Shown here: positions 7,016 to 27,282 of the stretch, piece after piece
Layout: every line of letters starts with the position of its first letter
Numbering within the stretch: the stretch's first letter is position 1
Source of the DNA: an uncultured Methanosarcinales archaeon
GTDB lineage: Archaea > Nanobdellota > Nanobdellia > Woesearchaeales > JACPBV01
Direction of reading: 5' to 3'
Length of the DNA stretch: 32,000 nucleotides
Assembly (NCBI GenBank): GCA_964609455.1
Contig: CAZSRD010000011.1
Span: forward strand, 1 to 32,000
The notes under the pieces: model-generated
Databases searched by the model: none
What the model saw: only the letters and a program-made list of their open reading frames with translations
What the model was told of the DNA's origin: nothing
Made by a program: the position numbers and the translations under genes

Positions 7016-7016
7016 T

Positions 7017-9742: not shown

Positions 9743-9755
9743 AAGAGAGGTTACT

Positions 9756-10037
9756 ATGGATGAAAAAGACATTGTCAATATGGTAAACGAGGTCTTTGAA
9801 GAGTCGTTTGAGATTGACAAGAAAGAGCTAGATCCGGCAAAGCATGTTTTTAATGATTTGGGGCTAGACAGCCTGGATACGGTAGATCTGGTTGTTGCCC
9901 TACAGCATAAATTCAACGTTAAGATACGAAACGACGAGCGTGTCAGGGATATTAGGACACTCGGAGATATCTATAAATTTATCCTTGCTCTTAAGAATGA
10001 GGGTATTTTAGAGCCGCCTACTGATAATAAAAATTAA
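9756..10037 (+). CDS. Acyl carrier protein (ACP-1)
   Basis: Phosphopantetheine site LGLDSLDTVDLV. RBS AGAGAGG before ATG 9756. The track start at 9705 overlaps the KS and lacks an RBS. Confidence 0.85.
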   Translation: MDEKDIVNMVNEVFEESFEIDKKELDPAKHVFNDLGLDSLDTVDLVVALQHKFNVKIRNDERVRDIRTLGDIYKFILALKNEGILEPPTDNKN

Positions 10038-10792: not shown

Positions 10793-10794
10793 GA

Positions 10795-12039: not shown

Positions 12040-13529
12040 AGAATACACATAACTGCAATAAAATAATGCCTTACGTAGAGTTCACCCGAAAAGAGATTGA
12101 TGATGCGGCCAAGAACAACAGGCTTCTAACTTTAGAAATTGAATTCAGTATTCGTTGCAATTTACGTTGTCAATATTGTTATGTTCCTGATCAAATCTCT
12201 ACTGAGAAAGAACTGACCAAAAAAGAGATACGCAGTGTTATTCTACAAGCGGAACAGCTTGGTGCAAGAAAAATAATTATTCTTGGTGGAGAGCCAATGT
12301 TTTATCCGCATATTCTAGAGATGATCAAATTTATAAAAAGTCGTAAAATGAAGGTAGAAATGTTTACAAATGGTTTTCAGATTACTGCTAATGTAGCTAA
12401 GCAGCTTGCTGATTATGGTGTGAATGTTGTTCTAAAAATGAGCTCCTTTAATGAAAACATAGAAGATATGCTCTGCGGCCAAAAAGGTGCTAGTAAAATG
12501 ATTTGGGACGCATTTCACAATCTAAAGGCCGCAGGCTACCCAGCTAAAAAAAATTCCTTATCGATTAGTGCTGTCATATGTCGCCAAAACGTTGATGAGC
12601 TGATTAATATGTGGCAGTGGTCGCGTGAACAAGGCATCGACCCTTATTTTGAAATGCTTACACCTCAAGGGCATGCGATGCAAAATGAATGGCTGAATGT
12701 AAGTCCTGCGAGGCTACACGAACTTTTCTCCGAGATCTCAAAAATTGATCGCTTGCATTATAATAAAACCTGGAATCCACAACCACCTCTAGTCGGCGGC
12801 CGATGCTTACGGCACCAGTTCTCTTGTTTGGTTAATTCATATGGTAATGTTACAGCGTGCGTAGGTGTGCCCATACCGGTTGGAAACATTCGTGAAAAAA
12901 ATCTTTCTGATATTATTAAAGACAGTGAGGTTATTCAGGATCTAAGAAATTACCGCTCTACCATAAAAGATCCCTGTCGTAGTTGCGAGAAAGTAGAAAA
13001 CTGCTATGGTTGCCGCGGAGCAGCGTACCAACTGACAGGAGACTACCTTGCCGCTGACCCTATGTGCTGGAAAAATACGGATCGTCAGAGTGAGATTGTT
13101 TTTTTACCAACTGCGGTAAATTCAATGATACCGCAGCAAGTCACGATGCGCGTCATTGATACTATCGACAAAGTAGAGGAGCGCATAGTGGAAGTTTCAG
13201 TAACAGTATCAAAGGACATGCCTTTTGTGAATGAAGACGGCATTGTTGATGAAGTGGTATACATCGAATTTATTGCGCAAGCGATTGCAGCACTAGACGG
13301 TTTCAAGAAAGCGGGAGCCTCTGGAGAGAAACCGGAAGGATTTTTATTGGGTGTTAAGAATCTTGAGATATTCGACCATGCCAAAATTGGCGACAAGTTA
13401 AGAATAACAGCGTTTAAATATGCACAATATGAAGCTTTCGGTGTAGTTAAGGGCCATGTTTATCATGGTAATAAATTATTAGCGCAAGGAGAGATAAAGA
13501 TCTGGCATGATACATCATGCCGCGAATAA
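12036..13529 (+). CDS. Radical SAM / SPASM-domain enzyme fused to a C-terminal hotdog-fold (dehydratase/thioesterase-like) domain
   Basis: CNLRCQYC radical SAM motif near the N-terminus. Cys-rich auxiliary-cluster region C..C..C then CRSCEKVENCYGC...C. The last ~130 aa (approx nt 13130-13526) show a hotdog-like pattern: VYIEFIAQAIAAL...GFLLGVKNLEI...GDKLRI...GEIKIW. Confidence 0.75.
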   Translation: MKNTHNCNKIMPYVEFTRKEIDDAAKNNRLLTLEIEFSIRCNLRCQYCYVPDQISTEKELTKKEIRSVILQAEQLGARKIIILGGEPMFYPHILEMIKFIKSRKMKVEMFTNGFQITANVAKQLADYGVNVVLKMSSFNENIEDMLCGQKGASKMIWDAFHNLKAAGYPAKKNSLSISAVICRQNVDELINMWQWSREQGIDPYFEMLTPQGHAMQNEWLNVSPARLHELFSEISKIDRLHYNKTWNPQPPLVGGRCLRHQFSCLVNSYGNVTACVGVPIPVGNIREKNLSDIIKDSEVIQDLRNYRSTIKDPCRSCEKVENCYGCRGAAYQLTGDYLAADPMCWKNTDRQSEIVFLPTAVNSMIPQQVTMRVIDTIDKVEERIVEVSVTVSKDMPFVNEDGIVDEVVYIEFIAQAIAALDGFKKAGASGEKPEGFLLGVKNLEIFDHAKIGDKLRITAFKYAQYEAFGVVKGHVYHGNKLLAQGEIKIWHDTSCRE

Positions 13530-13537
13530 GGAATTTT

Positions 13538-14206
13538 ATGAAATTATATAAAGTACATAAAAAAAGAATGAAGTTAAAATTGGTGATTATTCTATTCATG
13601 CTCTGTCTAAGTTTGCCAGTTAGTGTGATAGCCAGCGTTGAAGGTGTGCTAAAAGACCTTGAGACAAAGATGTCTGGCATAAGGACTATTGAAACAGATT
13701 TTGTGCAAGAGAAAGAACTAGCTATGTTTAAAGCTAAAATCATCATAGAAGGCAGCATGTATATCCAAAAACCTGGGCTTTTTGCCTGGCACGTCTATAA
13801 GCCGGTACGCTACTCTGCAATTATAGATGGGGATGTGATGCGCCAGTGGGATGAGGAGACAGACCAGACGCACAAAATATCATTATCAAAGAATCCAATG
13901 TTTAGCGTTATTATTACGCAGATGCAACTATGGTTTTTAGGGGCATATGTTGAGCTACTAGATGATTATAGCATAACAGTGCTCCAGCAGAATCCATTAA
14001 TGCTTACGTTCACCCCCCACGAAAATACGAGCGTAGCCAGCGTTATTGATAGAATTGAAGTTGTTTTCCGTGAAGATGAGAGTTACATTTCTCAGATACG
14101 CATATGGGAGAAAAGCGGAGATAATGCTCTAGTTAGCTTTATTAACACTCGCTTCAATCTCCCGATTGACCCAGTAATGTGGAAGGTAAAATCATATGTT
14201 CGATAG
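13538..14206 (+). CDS. LolA-like outer-membrane lipoprotein carrier family protein (periplasmic)
   Basis: Signal peptide, then a DFVQEK....G.MYIQKPGLFAWHV...IIDGDVMRQWDEE pattern typical of the LolA fold. ATG 13538 has AAGGA upstream; the track start at 13517 overlaps the upstream gene. Confidence 0.65.
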   Translation: MKLYKVHKKRMKLKLVIILFMLCLSLPVSVIASVEGVLKDLETKMSGIRTIETDFVQEKELAMFKAKIIIEGSMYIQKPGLFAWHVYKPVRYSAIIDGDVMRQWDEETDQTHKISLSKNPMFSVIITQMQLWFLGAYVELLDDYSITVLQQNPLMLTFTPHENTSVASVIDRIEVVFREDESYISQIRIWEKSGDNALVSFINTRFNLPIDPVMWKVKSYVR

Positions 14207-16583
14207 GTGTTTTTCCTGGCTATTTGACATGTTTCAACGTTTGAAATGGCTGGTTATTGCGTTAGTAGTGTTATCTACAGTCATTGCTATAGCTAACGTA
14301 GGCCGTATTTCTTTTGACAACAATATTGAGTCAATGCTTCCCAAAAATCAAGAGGTTCAGCGCATTATAGAATTTTTGCGAGAATCCAAGTTTTCAGACA
14401 ATATTGTTCTTTCTTTCAATCTAGAATCTAACGAATATAGTACGCGAGATCTTTTTAGTGTTGTTGATCAGGTAGCGCAATCTCTTGAGCCGCCTCTAGT
14501 AACAGATGCAACCAGTGGGATTTCTGGAATAGGCCCAGCAAAGGAGATAGTATCCTTTGCTAGATATGTCCCTCAGTTATTTGATAAAGAGGCTCTAGCA
14601 AATACCCGACAGAAAACCACGCCCGATGGAATACAGACGCGTCTCAGCCAGATATACCGACAAATGATTACTCCTGCGGGTACATTTATGAAATCTTCTG
14701 TGCAGACTGACCCGCTAGGGATATCTTTTCAGATGCTAGATAAGGTTAAAAAGCTTTCTTCATCTCTTGGATATGATGTTACGTTTGACCAAGGCCATTT
14801 TGTTAGCCACGATGGAAAACATGCTCTGCTTTTCGTGGAAACACCTATAACTCTCACTGATGGGTTCGGCTCGCGGGAACTTATTGCATACCTGAAGGAA
14901 AAGCTGAAAGTGTTGCCATCTTATATTTCTGTAGATATCATTGCCGGCCATCTACATACAGTAAGCAATGAGGATGTTATCAAGAGAGATATACGACTAA
15001 TGTTGGCTATAGCGACTGTAGCTTTCTTTTTATTATTTCTAATTGTACTTCGTAACCTCAAAGCTATAATGATATTTTTAGTGCCACTAGCATCGGTTCT
15101 TGTTGCCATAAATCTTTCACTACTAGTCTATAAAAAGCTGTCTTATTTCATAATCGGCATGGGCGCTGTTATTGTAGGGATTGCGATAGATTACGGCATT
15201 CATGTTTACATAGCTGTGCGTGCTATGGGTGGTAAGCCAGAGGTTGTTAAGCGCGTAGCGAAACCGGTAGTTACTGGGGCCCTGACTACCATAGGCGTTT
15301 TTGCTGCGTTCTTGTTTTCAAGTGTTTCCGGTTATCGCCAGTTAGGCCTGTTCGCGATTATCAGTATTGCCATATGTCTTCTTTATGCCTTATTTATTTT
15401 ACCGCATTTTCTAAGTAATTGGCGCAGGAGCGAGATTAAAGATAAAGTTATACACAGCCTTTTCGACAAGCATAATGCTTTTAATGGCATCATAACATCT
15501 GTATGGCTTGTGGTTATGATTCTAGCAATAGTGATGTCATCTCGTATTGTTTTTAATAATGACATTAAGCAATTCGATGGGGCAGAACCTAGGATTATGC
15601 AATCTGAAGAGAGGTTTAATCGGATATGGGCGCGGAAAGACATACCAGCAATTATGGTTGTTTCAGGTGAAACAATGGATGACGCTTTAAGGCAAAATGA
15701 GTTGATTTACCGAGAAATTGTTGCAAAAATAGGTGAAGAAAATATTACAAGCGTTGTCGGGGTATGGCCTTCAGCACAAAGCCGAGTAGCCAATATTGAA
15801 CGCTGGAATACGTTCTGGCAAAGCGGCCAGGAAGAAAAACTGAAGAATATGTTCCGGGAGTATGGATCTAAATATAATTTTAGCGAAGAAGCATTTGAGC
15901 CATTTTTTAATAACTTGTATGCGGACACCAAAGAACCTGTTTTCCTTGAGAGGTTAAAAAAGAAGTTTATATTTGAAAAACAGAACGGATACCAGGTATT
16001 ATCTTTTTTCCCTGATAAAGAACAGTATGTTACAGAAATTTTGGCTATGACTAAAAAAAGACCAGATATATTCATAGTTTCCCGAAGAACGCTTTCTGAC
16101 ATGATATCGCGCTCGATTTCTTCAGAAGCCCTTTTTGTTCTAGTGATAGCAGGATTTTTCATCTTGGCTCTGACGTTTTTACTATTGCAAAACGTGCGAC
16201 TAGCTTTTATTGCTCTAATTCCAGTTTTAAGTGGTGTTCTAGGTATTTTAGGCATATTTTCACTATTTAAAATACCGCTTACTGTGCCTGCAATAGTAGC
16301 TGGCATGGTTGTTGTAGGTCTCAGTATTGATTATGGAATATTCATGGTCTACAAGCACAGATGCAAATTAAATGTTGAGACACCAAAGGCAGTGGCGATT
16401 TCAGCTGTTACGACACTTATAGGAGCGGGGGTTCTTTTATTTTCCAAACACCCCGTACTTTTTTCTATCGGCTTAACAATGACGATAGGCGTTTCCATAG
16501 GATGTATAACTTCGTTAATAGTTGTACCATCAGCCTATGCGCTATGGGTGGGTAAGGAGAAAAAGGGTGTGTTGCAGACATGA
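14196..16583 (+). CDS. MMPL/RND-superfamily membrane exporter
   Basis: 795 aa with two blocks of ~6 hydrophobic helices (approx residues 270-400 and 640-790) separated by large soluble domains. Sits where APE-type clusters have their MMPL exporter. Confidence 0.75.
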   Translation: MFDRCFSWLFDMFQRLKWLVIALVVLSTVIAIANVGRISFDNNIESMLPKNQEVQRIIEFLRESKFSDNIVLSFNLESNEYSTRDLFSVVDQVAQSLEPPLVTDATSGISGIGPAKEIVSFARYVPQLFDKEALANTRQKTTPDGIQTRLSQIYRQMITPAGTFMKSSVQTDPLGISFQMLDKVKKLSSSLGYDVTFDQGHFVSHDGKHALLFVETPITLTDGFGSRELIAYLKEKLKVLPSYISVDIIAGHLHTVSNEDVIKRDIRLMLAIATVAFFLLFLIVLRNLKAIMIFLVPLASVLVAINLSLLVYKKLSYFIIGMGAVIVGIAIDYGIHVYIAVRAMGGKPEVVKRVAKPVVTGALTTIGVFAAFLFSSVSGYRQLGLFAIISIAICLLYALFILPHFLSNWRRSEIKDKVIHSLFDKHNAFNGIITSVWLVVMILAIVMSSRIVFNNDIKQFDGAEPRIMQSEERFNRIWARKDIPAIMVVSGETMDDALRQNELIYREIVAKIGEENITSVVGVWPSAQSRVANIERWNTFWQSGQEEKLKNMFREYGSKYNFSEEAFEPFFNNLYADTKEPVFLERLKKKFIFEKQNGYQVLSFFPDKEQYVTEILAMTKKRPDIFIVSRRTLSDMISRSISSEALFVLVIAGFFILALTFLLLQNVRLAFIALIPVLSGVLGILGIFSLFKIPLTVPAIVAGMVVVGLSIDYGIFMVYKHRCKLNVETPKAVAISAVTTLIGAGVLLFSKHPVLFSIGLTMTIGVSIGCITSLIVVPSAYALWVGKEKKGVLQT

Positions 16584-17242
16584 AAACATGGATGGTTATA
16601 GCAGCAATGGTTTTATTTATTGCTGGGTGTTGTTCTCTACCTCCCGAGAGAGTTAGTTATAGAAATGTAATAACAGTTGACCCTGTTCAGGCACGAGAGG
16701 GGTTTGCCAGTTTGCTGCCGCAGCAGTTTAGTATTGTTGATTCAATTGTCTTTCAGTATGGCAAAAAGCCTTTTAGCGCTATCGGTTATACTGAGATTAA
16801 TAGTTTAGATAATATGTTTAAAGCTGCTTGCCTAAATCATGCGGGCGTAAAACTGCTAGAGTTAAAGGTGGCAGGCCAGGAAATTAAATATGGATACGCT
16901 TTGGAAGAGTTGTCCGCTCATGGCGATATCGTGCAGGCAATGGCAACTGATATACGAAGGATTTACTTTGACCGTGTCCCAAGCCCGGAAGCAGAGACAT
17001 GCAAAGAGAGATATCAGGTTGTTTACAGAGAGATTTATAATGAAGGTATTTTGGAATACGTCTTTGCAGGTGAAGGACCTTTTTTAATTCGTAAAACTTA
17101 CTTTGAAAAAGAGAAAAACATCTGGAGTGTTTCTTACTATAAATATATGGAAAAAGATGGAAAAATATATCCGAGAGAGATTGTATTTAAACATCATCAA
17201 TATGATTACAGGTTAACTATTAAGTTAAAGGAGATTCGTTAG
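16580..17242 (+). CDS. Lipoprotein (DUF3261-like, as found next to MMPL exporters in APE-type clusters)
   Basis: Lipobox FIAGC after a signal peptide. ATGA overlap with the exporter gene. Confidence 0.6.
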   Translation: MKTWMVIAAMVLFIAGCCSLPPERVSYRNVITVDPVQAREGFASLLPQQFSIVDSIVFQYGKKPFSAIGYTEINSLDNMFKAACLNHAGVKLLELKVAGQEIKYGYALEELSAHGDIVQAMATDIRRIYFDRVPSPEAETCKERYQVVYREIYNEGILEYVFAGEGPFLIRKTYFEKEKNIWSVSYYKYMEKDGKIYPREIVFKHHQYDYRLTIKLKEIR

Positions 17243-17619
17243 TGAGTACGATCAAGCAAGAAATAAAGCAATGTATGCTTAAAATAGATAATACCGCAGG
17301 CAACAAGATAAAGGCACATTTTTTATTCCCGGAGCACTTTATCGGATTTAAGGGTCACTTTCCTGGTAACCCTGTTTTACCTGGGATTTGCCAGGTGCAG
17401 GCGCTTATCACAATTGCTGAGAAATTGCACAAAAAGAAAGCTGGCTTAAGAAGAGTTGTGCTCGCGAAATTTTTTAAACAGATATCGCAAGATGAAGCAG
17501 TGTTGTTTGATTATACAGAAGAAAATAAGCAAAATAACGAGTTTAATATAAAAGCACTGGTAAACACGGTTAACGGTGAAAAGATTGCTAAACTAGAATT
17601 AGAGATAAATTTTTTGTAA
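17242..17619 (+). CDS. FabZ/FabA-like beta-hydroxyacyl-ACP dehydratase (hotdog fold)
   Basis: FKGHFPGNPVLPGICQVQAL matches the FabZ catalytic His motif HFPxxPxxPG. GTG start overlaps the upstream stop; ATG 17275 is an alternative. Confidence 0.75.
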   Translation: MSTIKQEIKQCMLKIDNTAGNKIKAHFLFPEHFIGFKGHFPGNPVLPGICQVQALITIAEKLHKKKAGLRRVVLAKFFKQISQDEAVLFDYTEENKQNNEFNIKALVNTVNGEKIAKLELEINFL

Positions 17620-17633
17620 TAGAAAGGGTGCCA

Positions 17634-18122
17634 ATGAATACCAGACGAAAAAGAGAAGGATATTTTAAGCATATCAAAGGATCGCCTAAGCCCTTGACTA
17701 TGCAGGTAAAAAGGCAAGTGAAATTCAGCGAAGTTGATATAATGGGGATTGTCTGGTATGGCAGATATGCCGGATTTTTTGAAGAGGGGGCAGCCGCGCT
17801 CGCTGAGCGATGTGGTCTTTCTTATAAAGATTTCTACAAAGCGAATTTACGTGCTCCGATTGTGCAATTTCATATTGACTATTATCAGCCGCTTGTTTTA
17901 GATGAGAGGTTTACTATTTGCGTTTCTTTTTTGTGGAATGAAGCGTCTAAACTAGAAACTGAATTTGTGCTGTTGAAGCAGGATGAAAGTATTGCAGCAA
18001 CAGGTTATACTGTGCAGATGTTTACTGACGGTAAAACCAATAAAGCTTGTCTGATAGTTCCAGAGCTTTTAGAGCGCTATCACAGAAGGTGGAAAGCGGG
18101 CGAGTTTTCATGCCTAGAGTAA
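17634..18122 (+). CDS. 4HBT/YbgC-type acyl-CoA/ACP thioesterase (hotdog fold)
   Basis: VKFSEVDIMGIVWYGRYAGFFEEG resembles the 4HBT active-site region. ATG 17634 lies 6 nt after AAAGGG; the track uses GTG 17628. Confidence 0.7.
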   Translation: MNTRRKREGYFKHIKGSPKPLTMQVKRQVKFSEVDIMGIVWYGRYAGFFEEGAAALAERCGLSYKDFYKANLRAPIVQFHIDYYQPLVLDERFTICVSFLWNEASKLETEFVLLKQDESIAATGYTVQMFTDGKTNKACLIVPELLERYHRRWKAGEFSCLE

Positions 18123-19249
18123 AGGTTGTAATAGTTGATTGTGATATGACTACTGCTTATGGCTTAGGCGTAGATGCCTGTTGGAGCGGGCTAATTTCAG
18201 GAAAGTCTGCGATAAAAAAACTGGAACGCTTTGCAACAGAAGCTTTCAAGAGTGAAAACGCAGCAGTCGTTTCTGATTTAATTACTGATTCAGATCAGTC
18301 CCTAGTAATGCAAATGTTTGAACCGTTATTTAAAAAAGGCAGTTCCTGTATACCTGGTGATGCTACTTTGTTTTTAGCGACAACAACTGGTGAAATTGAT
18401 ATTCTAGAAAAGCATGTTTTAGCTGGGAAGTCAGATGCCATAGGTAGTAGGTTGGATTATTTGTTGGAGAAGGTTGGGCGGTTGAGTGGCGTAGATAAGC
18501 CTGGCGTGGTTATTTCTGCGGCCTGTTCTTCGTCAAGCGTGGCAATTGCCCAAATTGCGGGTATGATTGCTAGTGGTGAAAGTGATTGCGTGCTTATCGT
18601 TGCTGGTGATAGCGTAAGCGAGTTTGTTTTTTCAGGATTTTCCGTGATAAATGCCTTAAGCAGGAATAAAGCCAGGCCCTTCGATAAGCACAGGGATGGT
18701 TTAAGCCTAGGAGAAGCGGCAGGGTTCGCGCTGTTAATGAGCGAGTCACGAGCATTAAAAGAAAAAAGAACAATAATAGCAGAAGTAGCCGGGTGGGGCT
18801 TATCAAATGACGCCAATCATATAACCGGTCCCTCGCGGGATGGCGATGGGTTAAAATTGGCAATAAATAAAGCTTTGCGCTCAGCAAATATCAATCCTGT
18901 AGAAGTTGGTTGTATCTCTGCGCATGGCACAGGAACAATATACAATGACTCTATGGAAATGAAGGCGTTCAAAACGGTTTTTGGCAACCGTAAGGTTCCG
19001 ACTTATTCTATTAAGGGGGGCACAGGGCATACGCTGGGAGCAGCTGGTTTAATTGAGACAATCGTAGCTATAAAGTCACTGAAAGAAAAAATTGTTCCTT
19101 CAACAGTAAATTTGCTTGAAATCGATGACGAAGCTCAAGGGTGGGTTTTAGTAGAGCCGTGCTCTTTTGATAGCTCAATAACTCTTTCTACCAATTCAGG
19201 ATTTGGCGGAATAAATGCCGCTTTAGTATTAAGGAAGTGCAATGATTAA
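18110..19249 (+). CDS. Beta-ketoacyl synthase (KS-2, catalytic partner of the downstream CLF-like protein)
   Basis: Motifs ISAACSSSSVA (Cys), ISAHGTGT and GGTGHTLGAAG. The start was taken at MPRVKVVIV. The track start at 18047 would overlap the thioesterase by 76 nt. Confidence 0.8.
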   Translation: MPRVKVVIVDCDMTTAYGLGVDACWSGLISGKSAIKKLERFATEAFKSENAAVVSDLITDSDQSLVMQMFEPLFKKGSSCIPGDATLFLATTTGEIDILEKHVLAGKSDAIGSRLDYLLEKVGRLSGVDKPGVVISAACSSSSVAIAQIAGMIASGESDCVLIVAGDSVSEFVFSGFSVINALSRNKARPFDKHRDGLSLGEAAGFALLMSESRALKEKRTIIAEVAGWGLSNDANHITGPSRDGDGLKLAINKALRSANINPVEVGCISAHGTGTIYNDSMEMKAFKTVFGNRKVPTYSIKGGTGHTLGAAGLIETIVAIKSLKEKIVPSTVNLLEIDDEAQGWVLVEPCSFDSSITLSTNSGFGGINAALVLRKCND

Positions 19250-19970
19250 GAAGAAAGATAGGGTTGTGGTTGCAGGTATTGGATGGGTTACGCAAGAAAG
19301 ATATGGCAGCGTAATGCAAAAACTGCACAAGGACTATAAAGATAAAGTATCCTTACATTTACAGTTACGGGATGAATCTGTGTTTTTACAGCCAGTGAAA
19401 AATTTTGGTAGGTTTGATGAAATTTCAAAAAAAGCCTGCTCTGTGGCTGCACTTGCACTGTGTGACGCTGGTATTCCATATTCTAAGGATCGAAAAGAGG
19501 ACATTGGATTAATTGGCACAAATACAGCTGGTTCGTTATTGTCGAACTTGAGCTATTTTAAAGATTATGTTGAAAACGGCCGGACGTTGGCTAGGGGAAA
19601 TCTTTTTACATACACATTACCTTCGAGCCCATTGGCTGAAGCAGCAATCAATTGTGGATGTCAAGGACCCCTTTTATATATCAACTTTTCATCTCCGAAG
19701 AAACAAATGCCCCTATTACTTCGTTATGCAGAAAGCATGATTTGTCGAAAAGAGACACCTGCAATGCTAGCTATTAATGCTGATGAAAAAGAGGGGGTTT
19801 GCTTTTTATTGATACAGGAAGGCGATGCACTTGACAAAAAAATATGTGCGCTGGAGGATATTCTAGCTATTACAGAGAAGGTGACTATTTTAGAGGATAT
19901 GGTAAATGAATTTGAATCGTGCATCATTACAGAGGAATCGCACTTAAAGAATGATCAAAGAAACGCTTGA
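19242..19970 (+). CDS. Short KS-like protein without the catalytic core (chain-length-factor-like)
   Basis: The N-terminus RVVVAGIGWVT is KS-like, but the protein is only 242 aa and has no ACxS/HGTGT/GH motifs. 8 nt overlap with KS-2. Confidence 0.6.
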   Translation: MIKKKDRVVVAGIGWVTQERYGSVMQKLHKDYKDKVSLHLQLRDESVFLQPVKNFGRFDEISKKACSVAALALCDAGIPYSKDRKEDIGLIGTNTAGSLLSNLSYFKDYVENGRTLARGNLFTYTLPSSPLAEAAINCGCQGPLLYINFSSPKKQMPLLLRYAESMICRKETPAMLAINADEKEGVCFLLIQEGDALDKKICALEDILAITEKVTILEDMVNEFESCIITEESHLKNDQRNA

Positions 19971-19994
19971 TAAAATATTGGAGTAGGAATAGTA

Positions 19995-21251
19995 ATGAAA
20001 ATAAAGTTAATCTATCCAAAATGGACTAAACTTAAACATCAACCGGAATTCAATCTCCCGCCACACGGTCCAGTATGCTTTGCCGCAACCATACCAGATG
20101 AGGTTAAAATCTCTTTTTGTGATGAAAATACGGAAGTTCTTAACTTTTCAGAAGATGCAGATCTTATTGCACTATCTGTAATGCTGACGTGTCAGATCCC
20201 CCGTGCTTTGGAAATTGCAGATCATTTTAGAGCAGTTGGTAAAAAGGTTATTTTTGGTGGAATCGCAGTAATGTTGCACAAGGAAGAGGTCATGCAGCAT
20301 GCCGATTCGGTTTTTTTCGGTGAACCAGAAGGTCGGTTCAAGGAAGTTATTGAAGATTTCCAAAAAGGGCAATTAAAAAAACTTTATGACTATAATCTAA
20401 ATTTCCCTGACACTGCTACTATTGGAACCGCACGTCGCAGTATTCTTAACTATCCAAATTATAATTTTCGCGGTGTTCAGATGGTAGATCTTGTGCATGC
20501 ATCCAGAGGGTGCCGTTTTAACTGTTTTCCATGCTGCACTCCGTATTTAGGAGGGTGTAGTTTTAGGCCGCGACCTATAGATGCTGTCGTAAAAGAACTT
20601 GAAAGCATAGAGAATAAACGCATTTTCTTTGTTGATAACTCTATGGCCCAGGATGATGAATGGGAAAAGAAACTATTTAAGGCAATAGCACCATTGAAAA
20701 AGAAATGGATATCCCATCCCATTAAGGATGATGATGAGATATTGGATCTAGCTGTCAAGGCTGGATGCTGGTATGTGTACCAGGCAATCGTGGATACTTC
20801 TGACTATATACGAAAACGGATACTTCGCTTGAAGGAACGCGGCATTAGTGTAGAAGGAACTATTATTTTAGGAATGGATAATCAAGATGAGGATTATATA
20901 AAGCGTTTTGTTGATTTTCTTCTAGACTTAGATTTAGATCTTGCAGAATTTAACGTACTCACACCTTATCCTCATACTGCTGTTCGCACACAACTAGAAA
21001 AACAGGATAGGATAATACACAATAATTGGTCTAAATACACAGGTGGGGATGTTGTTTTTAAGCCCGCAAAGATGACAGTGTACTCGCTACAAAAGATGTA
21101 TGATTATGCCTGGGATATGTTTTATAGAGACTGTTCAAAGGAAATGAAAATGGCAAAGCTATATATAGAGGTAAATAGACGGGAAAAAGAGGACAATACA
21201 TTTGAGAGGGTTAAGCCAAGCCCTAACCGTAAGTGGGGATCAGCCACTTAA
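19995..21251 (+). CDS. B12-binding-domain (class B) radical SAM enzyme 1
   Basis: N-terminal Rossmann-like cobalamin-binding-type region (DLIALSV....GKKVIFGG), followed by SRGCRFNCFPC (CxxxCxxC). Confidence 0.75.
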   Translation: MKIKLIYPKWTKLKHQPEFNLPPHGPVCFAATIPDEVKISFCDENTEVLNFSEDADLIALSVMLTCQIPRALEIADHFRAVGKKVIFGGIAVMLHKEEVMQHADSVFFGEPEGRFKEVIEDFQKGQLKKLYDYNLNFPDTATIGTARRSILNYPNYNFRGVQMVDLVHASRGCRFNCFPCCTPYLGGCSFRPRPIDAVVKELESIENKRIFFVDNSMAQDDEWEKKLFKAIAPLKKKWISHPIKDDDEILDLAVKAGCWYVYQAIVDTSDYIRKRILRLKERGISVEGTIILGMDNQDEDYIKRFVDFLLDLDLDLAEFNVLTPYPHTAVRTQLEKQDRIIHNNWSKYTGGDVVFKPAKMTVYSLQKMYDYAWDMFYRDCSKEMKMAKLYIEVNRREKEDNTFERVKPSPNRKWGSAT

Positions 21252-21263
21252 CATGGTTCAACT

Positions 21264-22637
21264 ATGAAGGTTTTACTTATTGCGTCTAACATTGCGGATA
21301 CTCCTTATTTCGTATACCCACTGGGAATGAGTATGGTCGCAGGTGCCCTGCAGAATGCTGGGCACGAAACTATCCAGTTTGATTTTCTGCAGAGCGGGAA
21401 ATCGTTGGATGCACTTAGCCTTATTGTAGAAAAAGAACGTCCAGATTTTATTGGCATATCTGTACGGAATATTGATAATACAAATTTTTTAAACGAGCAG
21501 CGCTATGTCTATATTGTAAAGGATATGATACAAAGGATTCGGATTAAGACAAAAAGCCCGGTGGTGCTTGGAGGCTCAGGATTTTCCATCTTGCCGGATC
21601 TTGTTCTTCGAGAAACAGGAGCAGATTATGGGATCGTAGGCGAAGGAGAATCGCTAATGGTTGATTTTGTAAATAATGCTACTAAAGGAGTCTTTCCCGA
21701 AAAGCGTTGTGTGCGTGCTTCCGTTAGTTTGCCCGGAGAGAACATATCTTCTCCCTATTATGAGTCTGATCTTATGGAATTTTATAGAAAAAAAAGCAAT
21801 ATGGCATCTGTTCAGACAAAAAGAGGATGTGAATACGATTGTATTTATTGTACCTATCCTTTGCTTGAAGGAACAGATCTCCGATGCAGACAACCTAAAG
21901 CTGTTGTCGATGATATAGAGGTTCTAGTGGACAAGCACAAAATAAATCATATATTTTTTACGGATTCAGTGTTTAACGACAGGCATGGGCATTACCTCGA
22001 TGTGCTTAGGGAGCTAAAAAGAAGGGATGTGAAAATCACATGGACTGCATTTTTTAGGCCAGAGCTTTTTAGCGATGAGGTCATTAAATTAATGAGAAAA
22101 ACTGGGCTCAAATCTGCTGAGATAGGCGCTGATGCATCGACGAATACAACACTAAAGGGATTAAAAAAACCATTTTTATTTAAAGATGTTGTTGCATGTA
22201 ATACATTATTAGCTAAAAATGGCATTGCAACAGCGCATTATTACATGTTTGGGTGCCCCGGAGAAACCAAAGAAACGGTTTTAGAGGGGGTCGAAAACAT
22301 CAAAGGCATAAAAAATACGGTTTCATTTATATTTATGGGAATTCGGATACTTCCCGGCACTCCTCTGGTTCAAATGGCCCAAGAGGAAGGCCTTCTTTCG
22401 CCTAATCAAGAATTACTTGAACCCGTATATTATATCGCAAGAGGAGTGGATAAGCAGTGGATGGAGAAGGCATTAACAGACGCTTTTAGTGGTGTTAGAA
22501 ATTGTATTTTCCCACCTGACTCCCGTGATTCAAGCTTACAATTCCTTCATAGCTTGGGTTACACAGGCTCTTTGTGGGAGATGCTTATTACTAAAGATGG
22601 AAAGCGGAGAAGAGATGGACGTCGCACAAAAAAATAA
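21264..22637 (+). CDS. B12-binding-domain (class B) radical SAM enzyme 2
   Basis: N-terminal MKVLLIAS....PDFIGISV....VVLGGSG, followed by KRGCEYDCIYC (CxxxCxxC). Basic C-terminal tail. Confidence 0.75.
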   Translation: MKVLLIASNIADTPYFVYPLGMSMVAGALQNAGHETIQFDFLQSGKSLDALSLIVEKERPDFIGISVRNIDNTNFLNEQRYVYIVKDMIQRIRIKTKSPVVLGGSGFSILPDLVLRETGADYGIVGEGESLMVDFVNNATKGVFPEKRCVRASVSLPGENISSPYYESDLMEFYRKKSNMASVQTKRGCEYDCIYCTYPLLEGTDLRCRQPKAVVDDIEVLVDKHKINHIFFTDSVFNDRHGHYLDVLRELKRRDVKITWTAFFRPELFSDEVIKLMRKTGLKSAEIGADASTNTTLKGLKKPFLFKDVVACNTLLAKNGIATAHYYMFGCPGETKETVLEGVENIKGIKNTVSFIFMGIRILPGTPLVQMAQEEGLLSPNQELLEPVYYIARGVDKQWMEKALTDAFSGVRNCIFPPDSRDSSLQFLHSLGYTGSLWEMLITKDGKRRRDGRRTKK

Positions 22638-23817
22638 ACCCTTTAATACAGACCAGGTATGGTGCGTGGTTCCGGTTTTTAATAATAAGAAAACTGTTAA
22701 AGATGTAGCTATGGGCTGTAAGGAGCTTTTGCGTAATGTTATTGTTGTAGACGACGGCAGTACGGACACAAATATTACTGAATTATTCACAGACAGTGAT
22801 ATAGTAGTGCTTCAGCATAAAACAAATCAAGGAAAAGGTAGAGCCATATTGACCGCTTTAAGCTACATAAGCGAACGTGGTGGGAAGTTTATGATTACAA
22901 TTGACGCCGATGGTCAGCATTTTCCACGTGATATAAAGAAATTTTTACCCTTACTTGAAAAGGATGAGACGGTCGTTGTAATAGGAAGCAGAAATTTTAA
23001 CACGAAGAATATTTCTCGTGGAAGCCGATTTGGCCGGACATTCTCTAACTTCTGGCTGCGTATTGAGACTGGTGTCTCAATCGACGATTGTCAGAGTGGT
23101 TTTCGTTCATACCCCGTACACTATCTTAGTAAAATAAAAATGAACGGCTCGCATTATGATTTTGAAACCGAGGTTCTAGCCAAGGCAGTATGGTCAGGAT
23201 TAAAGCTAGAAACAGTCTCTGTAGATGTATGGTACCCTGAATTAAGTCTTCGTGTCTCCAATTTCAGGCCATTTATAGATAATCTGCGCATTTCATTAAT
23301 GCACGCCTACTTAATAGGTAGGCGCCTTTCCCCATTGCCTTATCGCAAATTAGTCCAGTTACCTGAGGAACATTTTGACATTAATATACTTCTGCACCCT
23401 GTTAAATTACTAAAGGCATTGTTAAAAGAGAACTCTACACCGTCTGGGCTAGCGGTTTCAGCGGGTGTAGGTATTTTCCTTGCTGTTCTACCACTTCTAT
23501 CAGTACATACGTTGGTAATTATTTACGTAACGACGCGTTTGCATTTAAACAAGGTTATGGCGGTATGTATACAAAATTTATGTATTCCACCTTTTGTACC
23601 GGTGGCCTGCGTTCAATTGGGATATTATATGAGGCACGGACACTGGTTAACGGATATATCGATTAAGACTGTTTTTGGTCAGCTTGGATCTAGAATATAT
23701 GAATGGTTCTTAGGGTCTCTTATCATAGCGCCTGTAATGGCTATAGCTGTAGGAGTAATCGTATTCTTTCTTGCTTGGAGACTAGAAAAGAAAGCGGTGA
23801 GCCATGCCAGAAAATGA
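22615..23817 (+). CDS. Family 2 glycosyltransferase fused to a DUF2062-like membrane domain
   Basis: VVPVFNN...VVDDGSTD...TIDADGQH are GT-A motifs. The C-terminal membrane region GVGIFLAVLPL...NLCIPPFVP is DUF2062-like. ATG 22615 is preceded by GGAGAAGAG; ATG 22597 is an alternative. Confidence 0.75.
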   Translation: MDVAQKNKPFNTDQVWCVVPVFNNKKTVKDVAMGCKELLRNVIVVDDGSTDTNITELFTDSDIVVLQHKTNQGKGRAILTALSYISERGGKFMITIDADGQHFPRDIKKFLPLLEKDETVVVIGSRNFNTKNISRGSRFGRTFSNFWLRIETGVSIDDCQSGFRSYPVHYLSKIKMNGSHYDFETEVLAKAVWSGLKLETVSVDVWYPELSLRVSNFRPFIDNLRISLMHAYLIGRRLSPLPYRKLVQLPEEHFDINILLHPVKLLKALLKENSTPSGLAVSAGVGIFLAVLPLLSVHTLVIIYVTTRLHLNKVMAVCIQNLCIPPFVPVACVQLGYYMRHGHWLTDISIKTVFGQLGSRIYEWFLGSLIIAPVMAIAVGVIVFFLAWRLEKKAVSHARK

Positions 23818-24730
23818 CCCTTTAAGAAAGATCAAAGTAAAAAAAAGAGGCAATGCTTTAGGTGTCTGGTTTTTTAAGGTTTTTTTACAGCTATTTGGAT
23901 TAGATGGTGCATATCGGCTTCTATTTATAGTCTGCTCTTATTATTTAATTTTCGACTGGGTAGCTGTTTCAAGAGCATTGGCATATATTAACAAGAGATT
24001 TCCTGGGTGTGGATTTTTTAAGAGTCGTATGCACGTATATAGATTATTTTTATGTCAAGGCAGGTGTCTTATTGACCGATATGCGCTTATATCAAACCGC
24101 ACAATGTTTGACATTAAGCTGTGTGGCTCGGGCATCCTTGTGCCTTTAGCCACCGATGTAAATCAGGGCTTCATTTTACTAATGACGCATATTGGTAATT
24201 GGCAGGTTTCAATAACGACTATAAGTGAGTTGAAAAAAACCGTATATTTGCTTATGCGACCGGAGGATAATACTGCAATAAAGGATTCTCTTGCCATAAG
24301 CTTGGAAAAGGGGCCCGTTAGGGTTATCTCACCAGAACAGTATCTTGGCGGGGTTATTGAAATTATGAATGTGCTATCTAAAGGGAATATAGTTTCGATG
24401 ATGGGTGATCGTGGATATGGGTCTAATGCTATTGATGTGGACTTTTTGGGAGAAAAAGCATGGTTCCCTTGCAGCGCTTTTGCCATAGCTGCGACAGCTA
24501 ATTGCCCTGTCGTGGTATTATTGTCTACTAAAATTGGCAAGCGTAAATATAGCGTTGATGTGGCTAAGGTGATGCGCCCCTCTTATCAGAAAGGCTGTGA
24601 TAAACGTCAGCAGTTGAGAAATTGGGTTCAGGAATATGCTGGCCTGCTTGAGTCATATGTGAAGGAATATCCATATCAGTGTTTTTTATTTCATGATATT
24701 TGGAAGAAAGAAGCAAAAACGGAGGCCTAA
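23804..24730 (+). CDS. LpxL/HtrB-family (lipid A late / lysophospholipid) acyltransferase
   Basis: ~308 aa with an N-terminal hydrophobic helix, a THIGNWQ (H-x4-type) motif and a MGDRG block. Sits at the usual position after GT2-DUF2062 in APE-type clusters. Confidence 0.6.
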   Translation: MPENDPLRKIKVKKRGNALGVWFFKVFLQLFGLDGAYRLLFIVCSYYLIFDWVAVSRALAYINKRFPGCGFFKSRMHVYRLFLCQGRCLIDRYALISNRTMFDIKLCGSGILVPLATDVNQGFILLMTHIGNWQVSITTISELKKTVYLLMRPEDNTAIKDSLAISLEKGPVRVISPEQYLGGVIEIMNVLSKGNIVSMMGDRGYGSNAIDVDFLGEKAWFPCSAFAIAATANCPVVVLLSTKIGKRKYSVDVAKVMRPSYQKGCDKRQQLRNWVQEYAGLLESYVKEYPYQCFLFHDIWKKEAKTEA

Positions 24731-25012
24731 ATGGAAAAAAACAAGGAAAAGGAACTGGTAGCACTGCGAAAAAAACTTAAAGAACTTCTGGTTAGTAGCT
24801 TATCGTTAGAAGGCGTAAAACCTGAAGATATCAAGGATGATGAAATTCTTTTTGGAGATGGGCTGGGTCTTGATTCGTTGGATGCAGTGGAAATTGTTGT
24901 TTTATTGCAGAGGAACTTTGGTATTGAAGTTAAGGATATGAATATAGGCAAAAAAGTATTTTACTCTCTTGATACTTTGGCGCGGTATGTTTTAGAAAAC
25001 AGAAAAAAATAG
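24731..25012 (+). CDS. Acyl carrier protein (ACP-2)
   Basis: LGLDSLDAVEIV phosphopantetheine motif. RBS ACGGAGG. Starts 1 nt after the upstream stop. Confidence 0.85.
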   Translation: MEKNKEKELVALRKKLKELLVSSLSLEGVKPEDIKDDEILFGDGLGLDSLDAVEIVVLLQRNFGIEVKDMNIGKKVFYSLDTLARYVLENRKK

Positions 25013-25044
25013 GAATTTAGGCATTTCAGGTAAAAGGCAAAACT

Positions 25045-26211
25045 TTGAAAAATAGACGTATTGTTATAAGCGGGTTAGGGGTTATTTCTGCAGCAGGGAA
25101 AGGTGTTCAAGCAACACTAAATAGCTTTGAATCTAGTAAAAGGAATGCAGGGAGTGTTACCCTATTTCCCACGTCTTTGAAGTGCCCTGTTTTTGAGGTA
25201 AGGGAAGTTAGAGGAGAAAAAAAAGAGCGTACATTGAATCTTGCCCTTTGTGCAGTAAAAGAGGCATTGAATGACGCAAGAATACCTGAGAAGCTATCGA
25301 ATTTTAGAACAGGGGTATGTTTAGGAACTACTGTAGCAAGCCAGTTGAATGATATTGATTTTTACAGGGCATATCGTAGTGCAGGAAATACGCCTATGGA
25401 TGCGGTTGAAAGGTTTTTAAAGGGGACTCTTTCTGAAGTTATAGCTAGTCACATTGATGCAAAAGGGCCATTCATGACGGTTGTTAACGCATGCTCTTCC
25501 GGAACAGATGCTATTGGAGTAGCATTGTCTTGGCTAAGAAGTGGGGTTTGTGATATTGCTGTTGCCGGAGGTGCTGACGAATTAAATACCATCCCTTTTT
25601 GCGGATTTGCGTCATTGGGTATAGCAAGCGACTCGTTATGCGCACCGTTTGACCGGGATAGAAAAGGGTTAAATCTTGGAGAGGGCGCAGGTGTTTTAGT
25701 TCTTGAAACAGAGGAACACGCGCGCCAAAGAGGAAGGGATTTTGATTTTGTTCTTACCGGATATGGCTTAGCAAGCGATGCATATCACCTTACAGCGCCT
25801 CACCCCGAGGGGTTGGGGCTGGAAAAAGCGTTGAAGAGAGCTATGTACGAATCAAGAATTACCTACCAAGATGTATCTTTTGTGAATGCCCACGGGACTG
25901 CGACACGTGATAATGATAAGGTAGAGGCAAAGGTTTTGAACAGGGTTTTTGGTTCCGAATTATCTTTTCTTTCTACAAAAGGCTTTACCGGGCATACGTT
26001 AGGTGCAGCTGGTGGCCTTGAAGCTGTTTTTACTGCTATAGGGCTTCGAGAAAAATGGATACCAGCCAGTGTAGGTTTTGTAAATCAAGATAGCGAAATA
26101 CCCATAACACCTGTTATAAAAAAAACTTTTGTTGAAGGCAGTTTCGCGATTTCTACGTCATTGGCGTTTGGTGGTAATAACTCAGCGATTATTATCGGTA
26201 GAGCTAAATAG
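25045..26211 (+). CDS. Beta-ketoacyl synthase (KS-3)
   Basis: Motifs VVNACSSGTDA (Cys), VNAHGTAT and GFTGHTLGAAG. TTG start as in the track. Confidence 0.8.
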   Translation: MKNRRIVISGLGVISAAGKGVQATLNSFESSKRNAGSVTLFPTSLKCPVFEVREVRGEKKERTLNLALCAVKEALNDARIPEKLSNFRTGVCLGTTVASQLNDIDFYRAYRSAGNTPMDAVERFLKGTLSEVIASHIDAKGPFMTVVNACSSGTDAIGVALSWLRSGVCDIAVAGGADELNTIPFCGFASLGIASDSLCAPFDRDRKGLNLGEGAGVLVLETEEHARQRGRDFDFVLTGYGLASDAYHLTAPHPEGLGLEKALKRAMYESRITYQDVSFVNAHGTATRDNDKVEAKVLNRVFGSELSFLSTKGFTGHTLGAAGGLEAVFTAIGLREKWIPASVGFVNQDSEIPITPVIKKTFVEGSFAISTSLAFGGNNSAIIIGRAK

Positions 26212-26222
26212 GGCACTTAAAA

Positions 26223-27266
26223 ATGGACGGGCTTATGAATGTTGTTGGAATAGGTGTAATTTCCGCGAACGGCCGCGGAATCAACAGCCATAAGGAATCT
26301 TTAAGCAGAGGATGGGTACCGCCTTCAGGAAAACTGGCGTATTGTGTATCTGCGGAAAGCCTTAATGACAAATTGGTTTTAAAGGAAATGCGCCGTGCAG
26401 ACCGTTTTAGTAAAATGGCGGCTCTGGCTGCTTGGGATGCTGTACAGGATAGCGGTATTGATCTGGATGAACTGAAATCGTCATTAGGCATTATTGTTGC
26501 AACAGCATTCGGTGCCCATGCGACAACCTTCCGCTTCTTGGATGACATTCTTGATTATGGAGACGACAATGTTTCTCCGACAGCTTTTTCTAACTCAGTA
26601 CATAATGCGGCGGGATCCTATATAGCCTCGATTCTGGGTAATCAGGGTCCTGTATTAACGATGACTCAGCTTGTTGCTTCTTTCCATCAAGCGCTTATTC
26701 TCGCAGAGTCATGGATAAAAGAAGGGAGGTGCCGAAATGTTCTTGTAGGTAGCGTGGATGAATATGCCGATGTGATGGAGTATATCTGCAGCCGTAAATT
26801 AACAATTGCTGAAGATGGTAAAATCAGACCTTTTCTGTTTACTAAAATGCCAGCATCGGTTCCCGGAGAAGGAAGTAGTTTTTTTTTAGTCACCGATCAG
26901 AATAGCCCCAAAAAGTATGCTTCGATCTCAGCATTATACGATGATAATGTACAGGAACCCGACATGCTTATTTTGGATTGTGATGGTATGGTGGGAAGCG
27001 AAGAAGGATATCGAGCAATTGGACAAACAAAGTCATTGATTTCAAGTTATGTACCGATATTTGGCAGCATGCTTACAATAAGCAGTTTTAACTGTGCTGC
27101 TGCAGCGCTTATGATTAAAGAACAATATTACTATGCTGCACCAGTGCAAGACAATCCGCACGGATTGAATTTGTGCAAGGCACATCAGCCCGCTGCAATA
27201 AGTAGTATCAGCTGTCTGAGGTATGGCTGTAAAGGTGAGAGATTGCAAATTTTTCTTAAACAATAA
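26223..27266 (+). CDS. KS-like protein lacking the active-site cysteine (chain-length-factor-like partner of KS-3)
   Basis: KS-like N-terminus VVGIGVISANG. The position equivalent to ACSS reads TQLVAS, with no Cys. No HGTGT or GH motifs. Confidence 0.65.
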   Translation: MDGLMNVVGIGVISANGRGINSHKESLSRGWVPPSGKLAYCVSAESLNDKLVLKEMRRADRFSKMAALAAWDAVQDSGIDLDELKSSLGIIVATAFGAHATTFRFLDDILDYGDDNVSPTAFSNSVHNAAGSYIASILGNQGPVLTMTQLVASFHQALILAESWIKEGRCRNVLVGSVDEYADVMEYICSRKLTIAEDGKIRPFLFTKMPASVPGEGSSFFLVTDQNSPKKYASISALYDDNVQEPDMLILDCDGMVGSEEGYRAIGQTKSLISSYVPIFGSMLTISSFNCAAAALMIKEQYYYAAPVQDNPHGLNLCKAHQPAAISSISCLRYGCKGERLQIFLKQ

Positions 27267-27282
27267 AACAAGGAGGGGTGAC

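Follow-up and report, generated by a model that had tools for sequence, protein, structure and literature searches.

What do two neighboring radical S-adenosylmethionine (SAM) genes, both with a B12-binding type of domain in front, contribute to a bacterial lipid operon? The question is raised by a 32,000-nucleotide (nt) stretch of contig CAZSRD010000011.1 (the window, by which the whole stretch is meant; all coordinates count from its first letter), in which the genes at 19995-21251 and 21264-22637, here named ORF1 and ORF2, follow each other on the plus strand with a gap of 12 nt. Our preferred answer, to which we give a probability of roughly 0.55, is that the two genes go together as a fixed, co-transcribed pair and encode different enzymes, both of class B radical SAM architecture, which form a core module of a widespread aryl polyene (APE)/flexirubin-like type II fatty acid synthase (FAS)/polyketide synthase (PKS) lipid cluster of anaerobic bacteria and divide the chemistry between them. 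The classification and context of the two genes are held with high confidence, while confidence in the specific chemistries proposed for them, by analogy with characterized enzymes, is low to moderate. The two genes have the following features:

19995..21251, plus strand: ORF1, a radical SAM protein of 418 amino acids (aa) with class B architecture (Rossmann/B12-like N-terminal domain and radical SAM barrel), from an unnamed family without NCBIfam equivalog; best fold match in the PDB, AprD4
19995..20399, plus strand: N-terminal Rossmann (B12-binding-like) domain of ORF1, about residues 1-135, from PF02310 at residues 52-118, the secondary structure of the model and invariant columns; cobalamin binding is a candidate function
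20511..20537, plus strand: radical SAM cluster motif CRFNCFPCC of ORF1 (C173, C177 and C180, plus C181) in the verified translation; all four cysteines occur in 59 of 59 family members
21264..22637, plus strand: ORF2, 457 aa, a member of TIGR04072, 'lipid biosynthesis B12-binding/radical SAM protein' (rSAM_ladder_B12), by hidden Markov model and by sequence and fold match to TsrM
21264..21698, plus strand: predicted N-terminal cobalamin-binding domain of ORF2, about residues 1-145, from PF02310 (64.2 bits) and the alignment to 6wte
21465-21467, plus strand: invariant Arg68 of ORF2, aligned to TsrM Arg69 and kept in 59 of 59 members
21828..21851, plus strand: radical SAM cluster motif CEYDCIYC of ORF2 (C189, C193, C196), followed by invariant Tyr198, from the family alignment

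ORF1 and ORF2 are real genes and not chance open reading frames (ORFs), because they have many homologs, invariant cysteine triads and confident structural models. Database homologs number more than 6000 for ORF1 and more than 2300 for ORF2, with E-values as low as 1e-290, and the closest are 97 and 93% identical, respectively. With each family aligned, the triad is found in all 59 diverse members. The AlphaFold2 models (predicted local distance difference test, pLDDT, 88.9 and predicted template modeling score, pTM, 0.88 for ORF1; 86.2 and 0.86 for ORF2) both match radical SAM structures with a probability of 1.0, and both proteins have the CxxxCxxC motif in a partial TIM barrel that defines the superfamily. 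A preliminary description of the window, made from its letters, had noticed two adjacent ORFs of 418 and 457 aa with the motifs SRGCRFNCFPC and KRGCEYDCIYC and a class B architecture in each. Both ORFs lie exactly where it placed them, the motifs are present at nt 20511-20537 and 21828-21851, and the architecture is borne out by Pfam: ORF1 matches PF02310 (B12-binding) at 34.1 bits (cutoff 32.1), over half of the N-terminal domain, and PF04055 (Radical_SAM) at 26.5 bits, slightly under the cutoff of 29.5; ORF2 matches the same two domains at 64.2 and 54.5 bits.

How closely are the two proteins related? A direct BLASTP comparison gives 25% identity over 150 aa (E 7e-8), and a profile-profile comparison 23% over 331 columns (probability 96.5%, E 1e-9). 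On these alignments, ORF1 and ORF2 are best described as two anciently diverged subfamilies that share one architecture. The label 'tandem paralogous' given to them at first is apt at the level of the superfamily only; a recent tandem duplication is ruled out by the 23-25% identity and by the different nearest families of the two proteins. A HemN/coproporphyrinogen-oxidase-like identity, which would have counted against the preliminary description, is ruled out as well, as neither protein resembles that group (NCBIfam yields a trivial 23-bit match in ORF2 and none in ORF1).

ORF2 belongs to TIGR04072 from end to end: the model scores 616.8 bits (cutoff 360) and aligns residues 2-442 to positions 1-442 of 443. 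As one would expect from the family name, lipid and FAS genes surround ORF2, and nothing sets it apart from the family. The next NCBIfam matches are BzaD (208 bits), TsrM (149 bits) and PhpK (94 bits); BzaD and TsrM are cobalamin-dependent methylases of sp2 carbons, and PhpK is a P-methylase. TsrM (tryptophan 2-C-methyltransferase, 6wte/6wtf) is the best PDB relative by sequence (6wte, E 5e-34) and also the best fold match (Foldseek E 7e-28, template modeling (TM) score 0.82), followed by MgmA/QCMT, OxsB, CysS and TokK, all of which are genuine cobalamin enzymes. TsrM and BzaD are thus the best characterized relatives of ORF2 by sequence, and TsrM by fold too, though ORF2 is shorter than TsrM by about 110 C-terminal residues. 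A function in B12 lower-ligand biosynthesis, as in BzaD, was rejected on the score (208 against a cutoff of 450 bits) and on the fixed synteny with lipid genes. The AprD4 model NF033070 scores 59.2 bits on ORF2, against a cutoff of 500.

Residues of TsrM were mapped onto ORF2 through the printed 6wte alignment, the numbering being checked against R69, E236 and E273 in a 2026 review (PMC12931638). According to that review, R69 of TsrM lies beneath the corrin, E236 lies between the cobalamin and the iron-sulfur cluster, and E273 caps the unique iron and blocks SAM binding there. The corresponding residues of ORF2 are R68 (conserved in 59/59 members), Y198 (59/59) and V236 (55/59). The Rossmann domain of ORF2 is placed as in the class B enzymes TsrM, OxsB, TokK and QCMT, and the sub-corrin Arg is shared with TsrM. 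The use of cobalamin by ORF2 is well supported because of the TsrM-like fold and the invariant Arg68 aligned to Arg69, and ORF2 very probably binds the cofactor in the manner of TsrM, as judged from alignment and model. On the other hand, ORF2 has neither of the two glutamates of the TsrM-type non-radical methylase; since Glu273 and Glu236 are replaced by Val and Tyr, the non-radical mechanism is unlikely, and we infer that ORF2, unlike TsrM, cleaves SAM reductively in the ordinary radical way. ORF2 would most likely be a cobalamin-dependent C-methylase using normal radical SAM chemistry, with an sp2 or otherwise unactivated carbon of an aryl/polyene acyl product as its target, and would fill the role that ApeB has in canonical APE clusters. 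This role is proposed because the relatives of ORF2 are methylases and because an ApeB-type methyltransferase is missing from the conserved gene block described below, though the related loci were not searched for one systematically.

ORF1 is a different type of protein. No curated NCBIfam equivalog matches it above cutoff, and its best scores are spread over TIGR04013 (60 bits), TIGR04072 (53 bits), HpnJ (45 bits), BchE (39 bits) and AprD4 (38 bits). It falls outside TIGR04072 (52.7 against a cutoff of 360 bits) and outside the AprD4 family NF033070 (38.2 against 500 bits), the likeness to AprD4 being one of fold only. AprD4, a radical SAM 1,2-diol dehydratase of apramycin biosynthesis, is the best solved relative of ORF1 (6fd2; E 4e-6 with the single sequence, 1.9e-8 with the family profile) and its best fold match (E 1e-18, TM 0.76), with the methylases MgmA and TsrM second at a TM of about 0.6. 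Both proteins have the same two-domain layout of Rossmann and radical SAM domains and a similar length, but they are only 18% identical, AprD4 comes from an aminoglycoside cluster, and ORF1 has invariant residues of its own (H24, C66, Q67 and C181). Although AprD4 clusters with B12-radical SAM enzymes, it binds no cobalamin (PMC12931638).

Does ORF1 use cobalamin? According to the profile alignment, seven residues are missing from ORF1, the 'RNxDN' loop to which the sub-corrin Arg of ORF2 and TsrM belongs, and the invariant Cys66-Gln67 of ORF1 stand at the place of this loop. The first Rossmann strand leads into a loop, 'LPPHGP', that holds the invariant His24; in ORF2 and AprD4 this place is taken by 'PLG'/'PLD'. 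The extreme conservation of the N-terminal domain, with His24, Cys66 and Gln67 all invariant, argues that it binds something, and His24 and Cys66-Gln67 could be cofactor ligands. The preliminary description had suggested checking the conservation of cobalamin-binding residues in both proteins. For ORF2 the outcome is positive (Arg68), while for ORF1 cobalamin dependence is doubtful on sequence and model: the loop is deleted, the protein is AprD4-like and PF02310 is barely over cutoff, yet H24, C66 and Q67 never vary.

The wider relatives of ORF1 were sought with phmmer, in an exhaustive search over 1.84 billion representatives at 50% identity. Only two full-length representatives lie at 50-59% identity to ORF1. 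The family is thus very tight. Beneath it, unnamed relatives at 31-41% identity make up a broad tier, in which 655 proteins reach E <=1e-30, and the tier leans toward BchE, HpnJ and TIGR04013, all under cutoff. As far as such profile scores can place it, this next tier belongs with the non-methylating enzymes of the superfamily. If AprD4, HpnJ and BchE are a guide, ORF1 would probably catalyze a separate, non-methylating step driven by the 5'-deoxyadenosyl radical, e.g., a dehydration, a rearrangement or the formation of a C-C bond. Its substrate would be the same intermediate, bound on an acyl carrier protein (ACP) or linked to a sugar, and the site of attack would lie either in the acyl chain or in the sugar-phosphate anchor that the neighboring glycosyltransferase (GT2) and LpxL-type proteins make; ORF1 may work in a complex with ORF2. 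Action of the two enzymes on the acyl chain is plausible by analogy.

These results bear on the idea, put forward at first, of two sequential or iterative modifications by twin enzymes. ORF1 and ORF2 would then be paralogous, cobalamin-dependent class B enzymes that make like modifications (two methylations, for instance, giving a +14 Da series) on a growing acyl chain. The B12-binding and Radical_SAM matches and intact cysteine motifs of both proteins are what such twins would have; their adjacency is conserved, and the head groups of canonical APEs are mono- or di-methylated. The nearest relatives differ, however: ORF2 is closest to methylases and ORF1 to non-methylating AprD4-, HpnJ- and BchE-like enzymes, of which AprD4 does without cobalamin. 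With 23-25% identity, different subfamilies and no RNxDN loop in ORF1, twin enzymes are distinctly improbable, and the proposal is not supported. There is also a bolder possibility, rather unlikely in our judgment, that ORF1 represents a functional class new to the B12-domain radical SAM superfamily and works, obligately partnered with TIGR04072 proteins, in a reaction novel for fatty-acyl/polyketide lipids. Radical chemistry might, for instance, form a C-C bond on, or rearrange, a polyene chain or its amino-sugar anchor, perhaps with an unusual cofactor ligation by His24 or Cys66. If this were true, the cluster would make an undiscovered class of lipids common to anaerobes of many phyla.

Is the pairing of ORF1 with ORF2 a fixed one? 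A genome scan with one genome per GTDB species returned 294 ORF1 relatives, and the best 80 were kept as loci. For counts of gene presence, 33 reference loci were full-length, the flanks of 10 kb being shorter than the whole cluster. The nearest reference genomes are metagenome-assembled genomes (MAGs) of Desulfobacterales/Desulfobacteraceae, with an ORF1 identity of 74-75%, and exact copies of ORF2 occur in metagenome contigs only. Among the best 80 loci, the ORF1 family is found in Desulfobacterota, Omnitrophota, Nitrospirota/Thermodesulfovibrionia, Verrucomicrobiota/Kiritimatiellia/Victivallales, Elusimicrobiota, Planctomycetota, Geobacteraceae and Spirochaetota/Brevinematales, and ORF1 homologs are 65-75% identical across at least 8 phyla. 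Of the 76 loci with enough sequence downstream, 73 have an ORF2 homolog directly 3' of ORF1 on the same strand, 0-348 nt away, and two of the three exceptions (L013 and L028) still hold a TIGR04072 member within 4 kb (513 and 517 bits). ORF1 and ORF2 are an almost obligate gene pair and a near-universal module of this cluster in many anaerobic phyla. They are part of a near-invariant block of 14 genes, syntenic across the groups just listed from Desulfobacterota to Spirochaetota: the radical SAM protein with a SPASM domain (rSAM-SPASM), LolA, MMPL, DUF3261, ApeI, thioesterase (TE), ketosynthase (KS), chain-length-factor-like protein (CLF), ORF1, ORF2, GT2, LpxL, KS and KS. Within the block, conservation is highest in ORF1, whose median identity of 70% compares with 36-66% in the remaining proteins, a figure that is biased since the loci were picked by similarity to ORF1; independent top-120 lists, with the few closest matches excluded, agree with it (67-75% for ORF1, 58-67% for ORF2).

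All three exceptional loci (L013, L028 and L036) come from Spirochaetota/Brevinematales. There the cluster is rearranged into two divergent operons, and an ORF1 of 71-74% identity stands beside LpxL-KS-KS. In L013 and L028, a far more divergent TIGR04072 gene (37-39% identity) follows TE-KS-CLF on the opposite strand. The only nearby B12-radical SAM protein of L036 is HpnJ-like and not a TIGR04072 member.

Strict adjacency with a 12-nt gap would also suit an ORF1 without catalysis of its own, serving ORF2 as a scaffold or chaperone in the way that a CLF serves a KS, in an obligate heterodimer with one active site. The cluster already uses pseudo-enzyme pairs of the KS/CLF type, and the Radical_SAM score of ORF1 is under cutoff. 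A degenerate pseudo-enzyme, however, would not be expected to keep an invariant CxxxCxxC and the highest conservation in the cluster (65-75% across phyla), and homolog searches found no fused ORF1-ORF2 proteins among their top matches. We consider a mere scaffold quite improbable.

The gene pair lies inside a larger operon, of which the following parts are needed here:

6281..27266, plus strand: tightly packed lipid/polyketide operon on a single strand, from profile searches, gene spacing and synteny across 80 loci
12036..13529, plus strand: rSAM-SPASM, the third radical SAM enzyme, with a C-terminal extension weakly like the dehydratase ApeP; in 26 of 33 full loci
18110..19249, plus strand: ketosynthase KS_b in the position of ApeO, directly upstream of the CLF-like gene; N- and C-terminal ketoacyl-synt matches in Pfam, gene call of locus L001, 32 of 33 full loci
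19242..19970, plus strand: truncated KS-like protein of CLF type, 242 aa, in the position of ApeC; BLASTP to KS_d E 2e-5, position kept in 31 of 33 full loci
22615..23817, plus strand: GT2-DUF2062 glycosyltransferase, like polyprenyl-phosphate sugar synthases, in the position of ApeJ; PpgS-like at 83.6 bits, start at 22615 likely
23804..24730, plus strand: LpxL-type protein, like lipid A biosynthesis acyltransferases (PF03279); in 33 of 33 full loci

In order, the cluster begins with a short-chain dehydrogenase/ketoreductase (SDR/KR, FlxB-like), a phytoene-desaturase-like flavin adenine dinucleotide (FAD) enzyme, a KS, an ACP, a PlsC-type acyltransferase, an FlxY/PaaK-like ligase and rSAM-SPASM; continues with a LolA-like protein, an MMPL/RND transporter, DUF3261, an ApeI-like dehydratase, a 4HBT thioesterase, a KS, the truncated KS-like 'CLF', ORF1 and ORF2; and then has GT2-DUF2062, the LpxL-type acyltransferase, an ACP, a KS and a KS-like protein. 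Every gene between 6281 and at least 27266 lies on the plus strand, and neighbors overlap or lie no more than 32 nt apart, a spacing that fits an operon. The CLF-type gene overlaps the end of KS_b by 8 nt. A placement of the pair between KS/CLF genes and a glycosyltransferase, read from the sequence at the outset, agrees with the KS and truncated CLF-type ORF upstream and GT2-DUF2062 downstream. Pfam has no match to the 242-aa protein, and solved structures gave no support to the labels 'CLF' and 'ApeO'. The best solved match of both the KS and the CLF-like ORF is to the two different chains of PDB 9s5h (3-oxoacyl-ACP synthases of 412 and 413 aa). For the CLF-like ORF this match lacks significance (E 0.29); FabF and the APE ketosynthases are equally near to the KS.

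Within rSAM-SPASM, the C-terminal 147 aa or so (about 13086-13529) match an ApeP-like hot-dog dehydratase at E 0.006 and 16.7 bits, under cutoff, and L001 has the same match in its precomputed annotation. A stand-alone ApeP was not seen, and the gene at 12036-13529 may, from its sequence, encode a fusion of rSAM-SPASM with a dehydratase.

The glycosyltransferase suggests another site for the chemistry, since GT2 resembles the polyprenyl-phospho-GalNAc (N-acetylgalactosamine) synthase PpgS and, with 22615 as its likely start, shares 23 nt with the end of ORF2. ORF1, and perhaps ORF2, could remodel the amino-sugar-phosphate or glycerol moiety made by GT2 and LpxL instead of the acyl chain. Canonical APE lipids contain GalNAc-phosphate-glycerol, and ORF1 is closest to AprD4, which deoxygenates an aminoglycoside sugar, and to the HpnJ-like group. 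HpnJ contracts the glucosamine ring on a hopanoid. These similarities are remote and the argument is one of analogy; moreover, the linkage to GT2 is not fixed, as the Spirochaetota/Brevinematales loci have their TIGR04072 gene with TE-KS-CLF and ORF1 with LpxL-KS-KS. A role confined to the head group or anchor seems unlikely, though it deserves consideration. Under the preferred reading of a pair with divided chemistries, the product would be a glycosylated, acylated outer-membrane lipid that is exported by the LolA/MMPL/DUF3261 proteins, and would not be a ladderane.

To which known clusters does this operon belong? Its likeness to canonical APE (ApeA-R)/flexirubin clusters lies in KS plus CLF, ACPs, an ApeI-like dehydratase, a FlxB-like KR, an FlxY-like aryl-acid ligase, a thioesterase, a glycosyltransferase, acyltransferases and the LolA/MMPL/DUF3261 export genes. 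Of the APE core types, the KS, ACP, KR (SDR) and MMPL are clear; the ApeI-like protein scores 25.9 bits, under the cutoff of 28.5, the CLF is weakly KS-like, and what resembles ApeP is a weak match in a part joined to the SPASM protein. LolA2_flexi is a flexirubin-like accessory, and all scores against flexirubin models are under cutoff. The window cluster differs from canonical APE clusters by its three radical SAM genes, the phytoene-desaturase-like enzyme and a second KS/KS-like pair. Radical SAM enzymes are absent from the canonical ApeA-R set, which includes ApeB as its SAM-dependent methyltransferase (PMC8253772, Table 1); this upholds the remark in the preliminary description that neither ORF belongs to the canonical gene set.

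A counterpart that the preliminary description had not recognized has been catalogued already, the Kuenenia Kuste3335-3352/Desulfotalea-type cluster, which antiSMASH calls 'ladderane' outside anammox bacteria; the match is one of gene content. Rattray et al. (2009) described unusual FAS clusters of Kuenenia stuttgartiensis with 'SAM radical', phytoene-desaturase-like, phenylacetyl-CoA ligase and glycosyltransferase genes, in striking synteny with Desulfotalea psychrophila, Geobacter and Pelobacter (PMC2649909). Kuste3335-3352 and Desulfotalea DP185x share with the window several FabF-like KS, ACPs, phytoene-desaturase-like, phenylacetate-CoA-ligase-like and glycosyltransferase genes and radical SAM enzymes, along with an occurrence in Deltaproteobacteria and other non-anammox anaerobes; as judged by the functions of the locus tags, the gene order in Kuenenia is unlike that of the window. 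The 'ladderane' class has been in antiSMASH since version 3 and is founded on Rattray et al. (2009). Surveys of non-anammox phyla, Desulfobacterota and Omnitrophota among them, report expressed biosynthetic gene clusters (BGCs) of this class and give their function as unknown (PMC9902471). Expression of Kuste3342 and Kuste3343 in E. coli gave neither detectable protein nor product (2016; PMC4790861), and for TIGR04072, Kuste3342/3343 and DP1853/1855 the literature search returned only this failed expression and the 2009 comparative study.

Could the pair make ladderanes after all? A radical cyclization of polyunsaturated chains was proposed by Rattray et al. for the Kuenenia clusters (PMC2649909), by which the radical SAM enzymes would form cyclobutane or other rings, and the family of ORF2 is named rSAM_ladder_B12; the window also has the phytoene-desaturase-like enzyme and three radical SAM genes. 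Desulfotalea, however, has the syntenic cluster and acyclic polyunsaturated hydrocarbons, and ladderanes were not found in it (PMC2649909). Another locus, KustE3603-3608, is now regarded as the cluster specific to anammox bacteria. Of the genes that mark a ladderane cluster (amxACP, amxFabZ and the amxFabF pair), none of amxFabZ type was identified in the window, whose nearest genomes are Desulfobacterales MAGs (<=75% identity), and the cluster is present in at least 8 non-anammox phyla. Ladderane synthesis is thus the least credible of the explanations, and very improbable indeed.

Several points weigh against the reading of ORF1 and ORF2 as a pair with divided chemistries in an APE-like cluster. 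The resemblance of ORF1 to AprD4 is weak (18% identity), and its highly conserved N-terminal domain could still bind cobalamin or another cofactor. The signals in ORF2 are mixed, as the sub-corrin Arg is a signature of the non-radical TsrM while the absent capping Glu suggests radical chemistry. Methylation by ORF2 leans on relatives that are about 23% identical, and ORF2 is far under the family cutoffs of TsrM (149 against 500 bits) and BzaD (208 against 450 bits). The KS upstream of the pair shows no preference for ApeO over FabF, and its margin for 9s5h over ordinary FabF is small (172.7 and 169.9 bits). A non-conserved ORF at 28028-28840 carries the class I methyltransferase motif 'VDLCSGSGG', so that a SAM-dependent methylase may exist here. 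Kuenenia and Desulfotalea are absent from the best 80 of the 294 loci, and Kuste3342/3343 and DP1853/1855, judged by gene function, are candidate orthologs of ORF1 and ORF2. Lastly, the literature search gave no substrate, product or activity for any member of the ORF1 family or TIGR04072.

The name TIGR04072 and the type of cluster were known before; new are the functional difference between ORF1 and ORF2, the doubt about cobalamin in ORF1 and the near-universal pairing. The window adds one further example, new at the species level, of a system recognized since 2009. Genome-mining software flags clusters of this type as 'ladderane' in anaerobes that include sulfate reducers, Omnitrophota, Nitrospirota and Verrucomicrobiota. 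A 2026 review (PMC13459092) names just two kinds of fatty-acyl lipid, ladderanes and jawsamycin, for which modification by radical SAM enzymes has been proposed to date, and the window cluster has three such enzymes. Two distinct enzymes with distinct likely chemistries, their near-obligate pairing and the top conservation of ORF1 make single-gene predictions testable in cultivable hosts.

The remaining observations concern the surroundings of the pair. Scans for promoters and terminators over the window gave background levels (51 found and 55 expected; 20 found and 14 expected) and are uninformative on operon boundaries, and an Rfam scan for riboswitches and other RNAs found nothing. A second set of ACP, KS and KS-like genes follows the acyltransferase at 24731-27266. 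Three further ORFs downstream (27223-27879, 28834-29454 and 29706-31052) are conserved in 19-28 of the best 80 loci, and in L001 an ACP, a 438-aa protein, an FAD oxidoreductase and an AMP-ligase come next, so that the cluster must reach past the window. The ORF at 28028-28840 has faint matches to Methyltransf_25 and UbiE and a hydrophobic C-terminal half. It occurs on metagenome contigs of the same strain only and in none of the 80 reference loci, and L001 calls a fusion of it with the next ORF (475 aa). Directly upstream of the cluster, at 237-4523, is a group of mobile or phage-like genes:

237-1133: sigma-70 region 4/helix-turn-helix protein
1652-3781: Prim-Pol/D5-type primase-helicase
4095-4523: small terminase subunit

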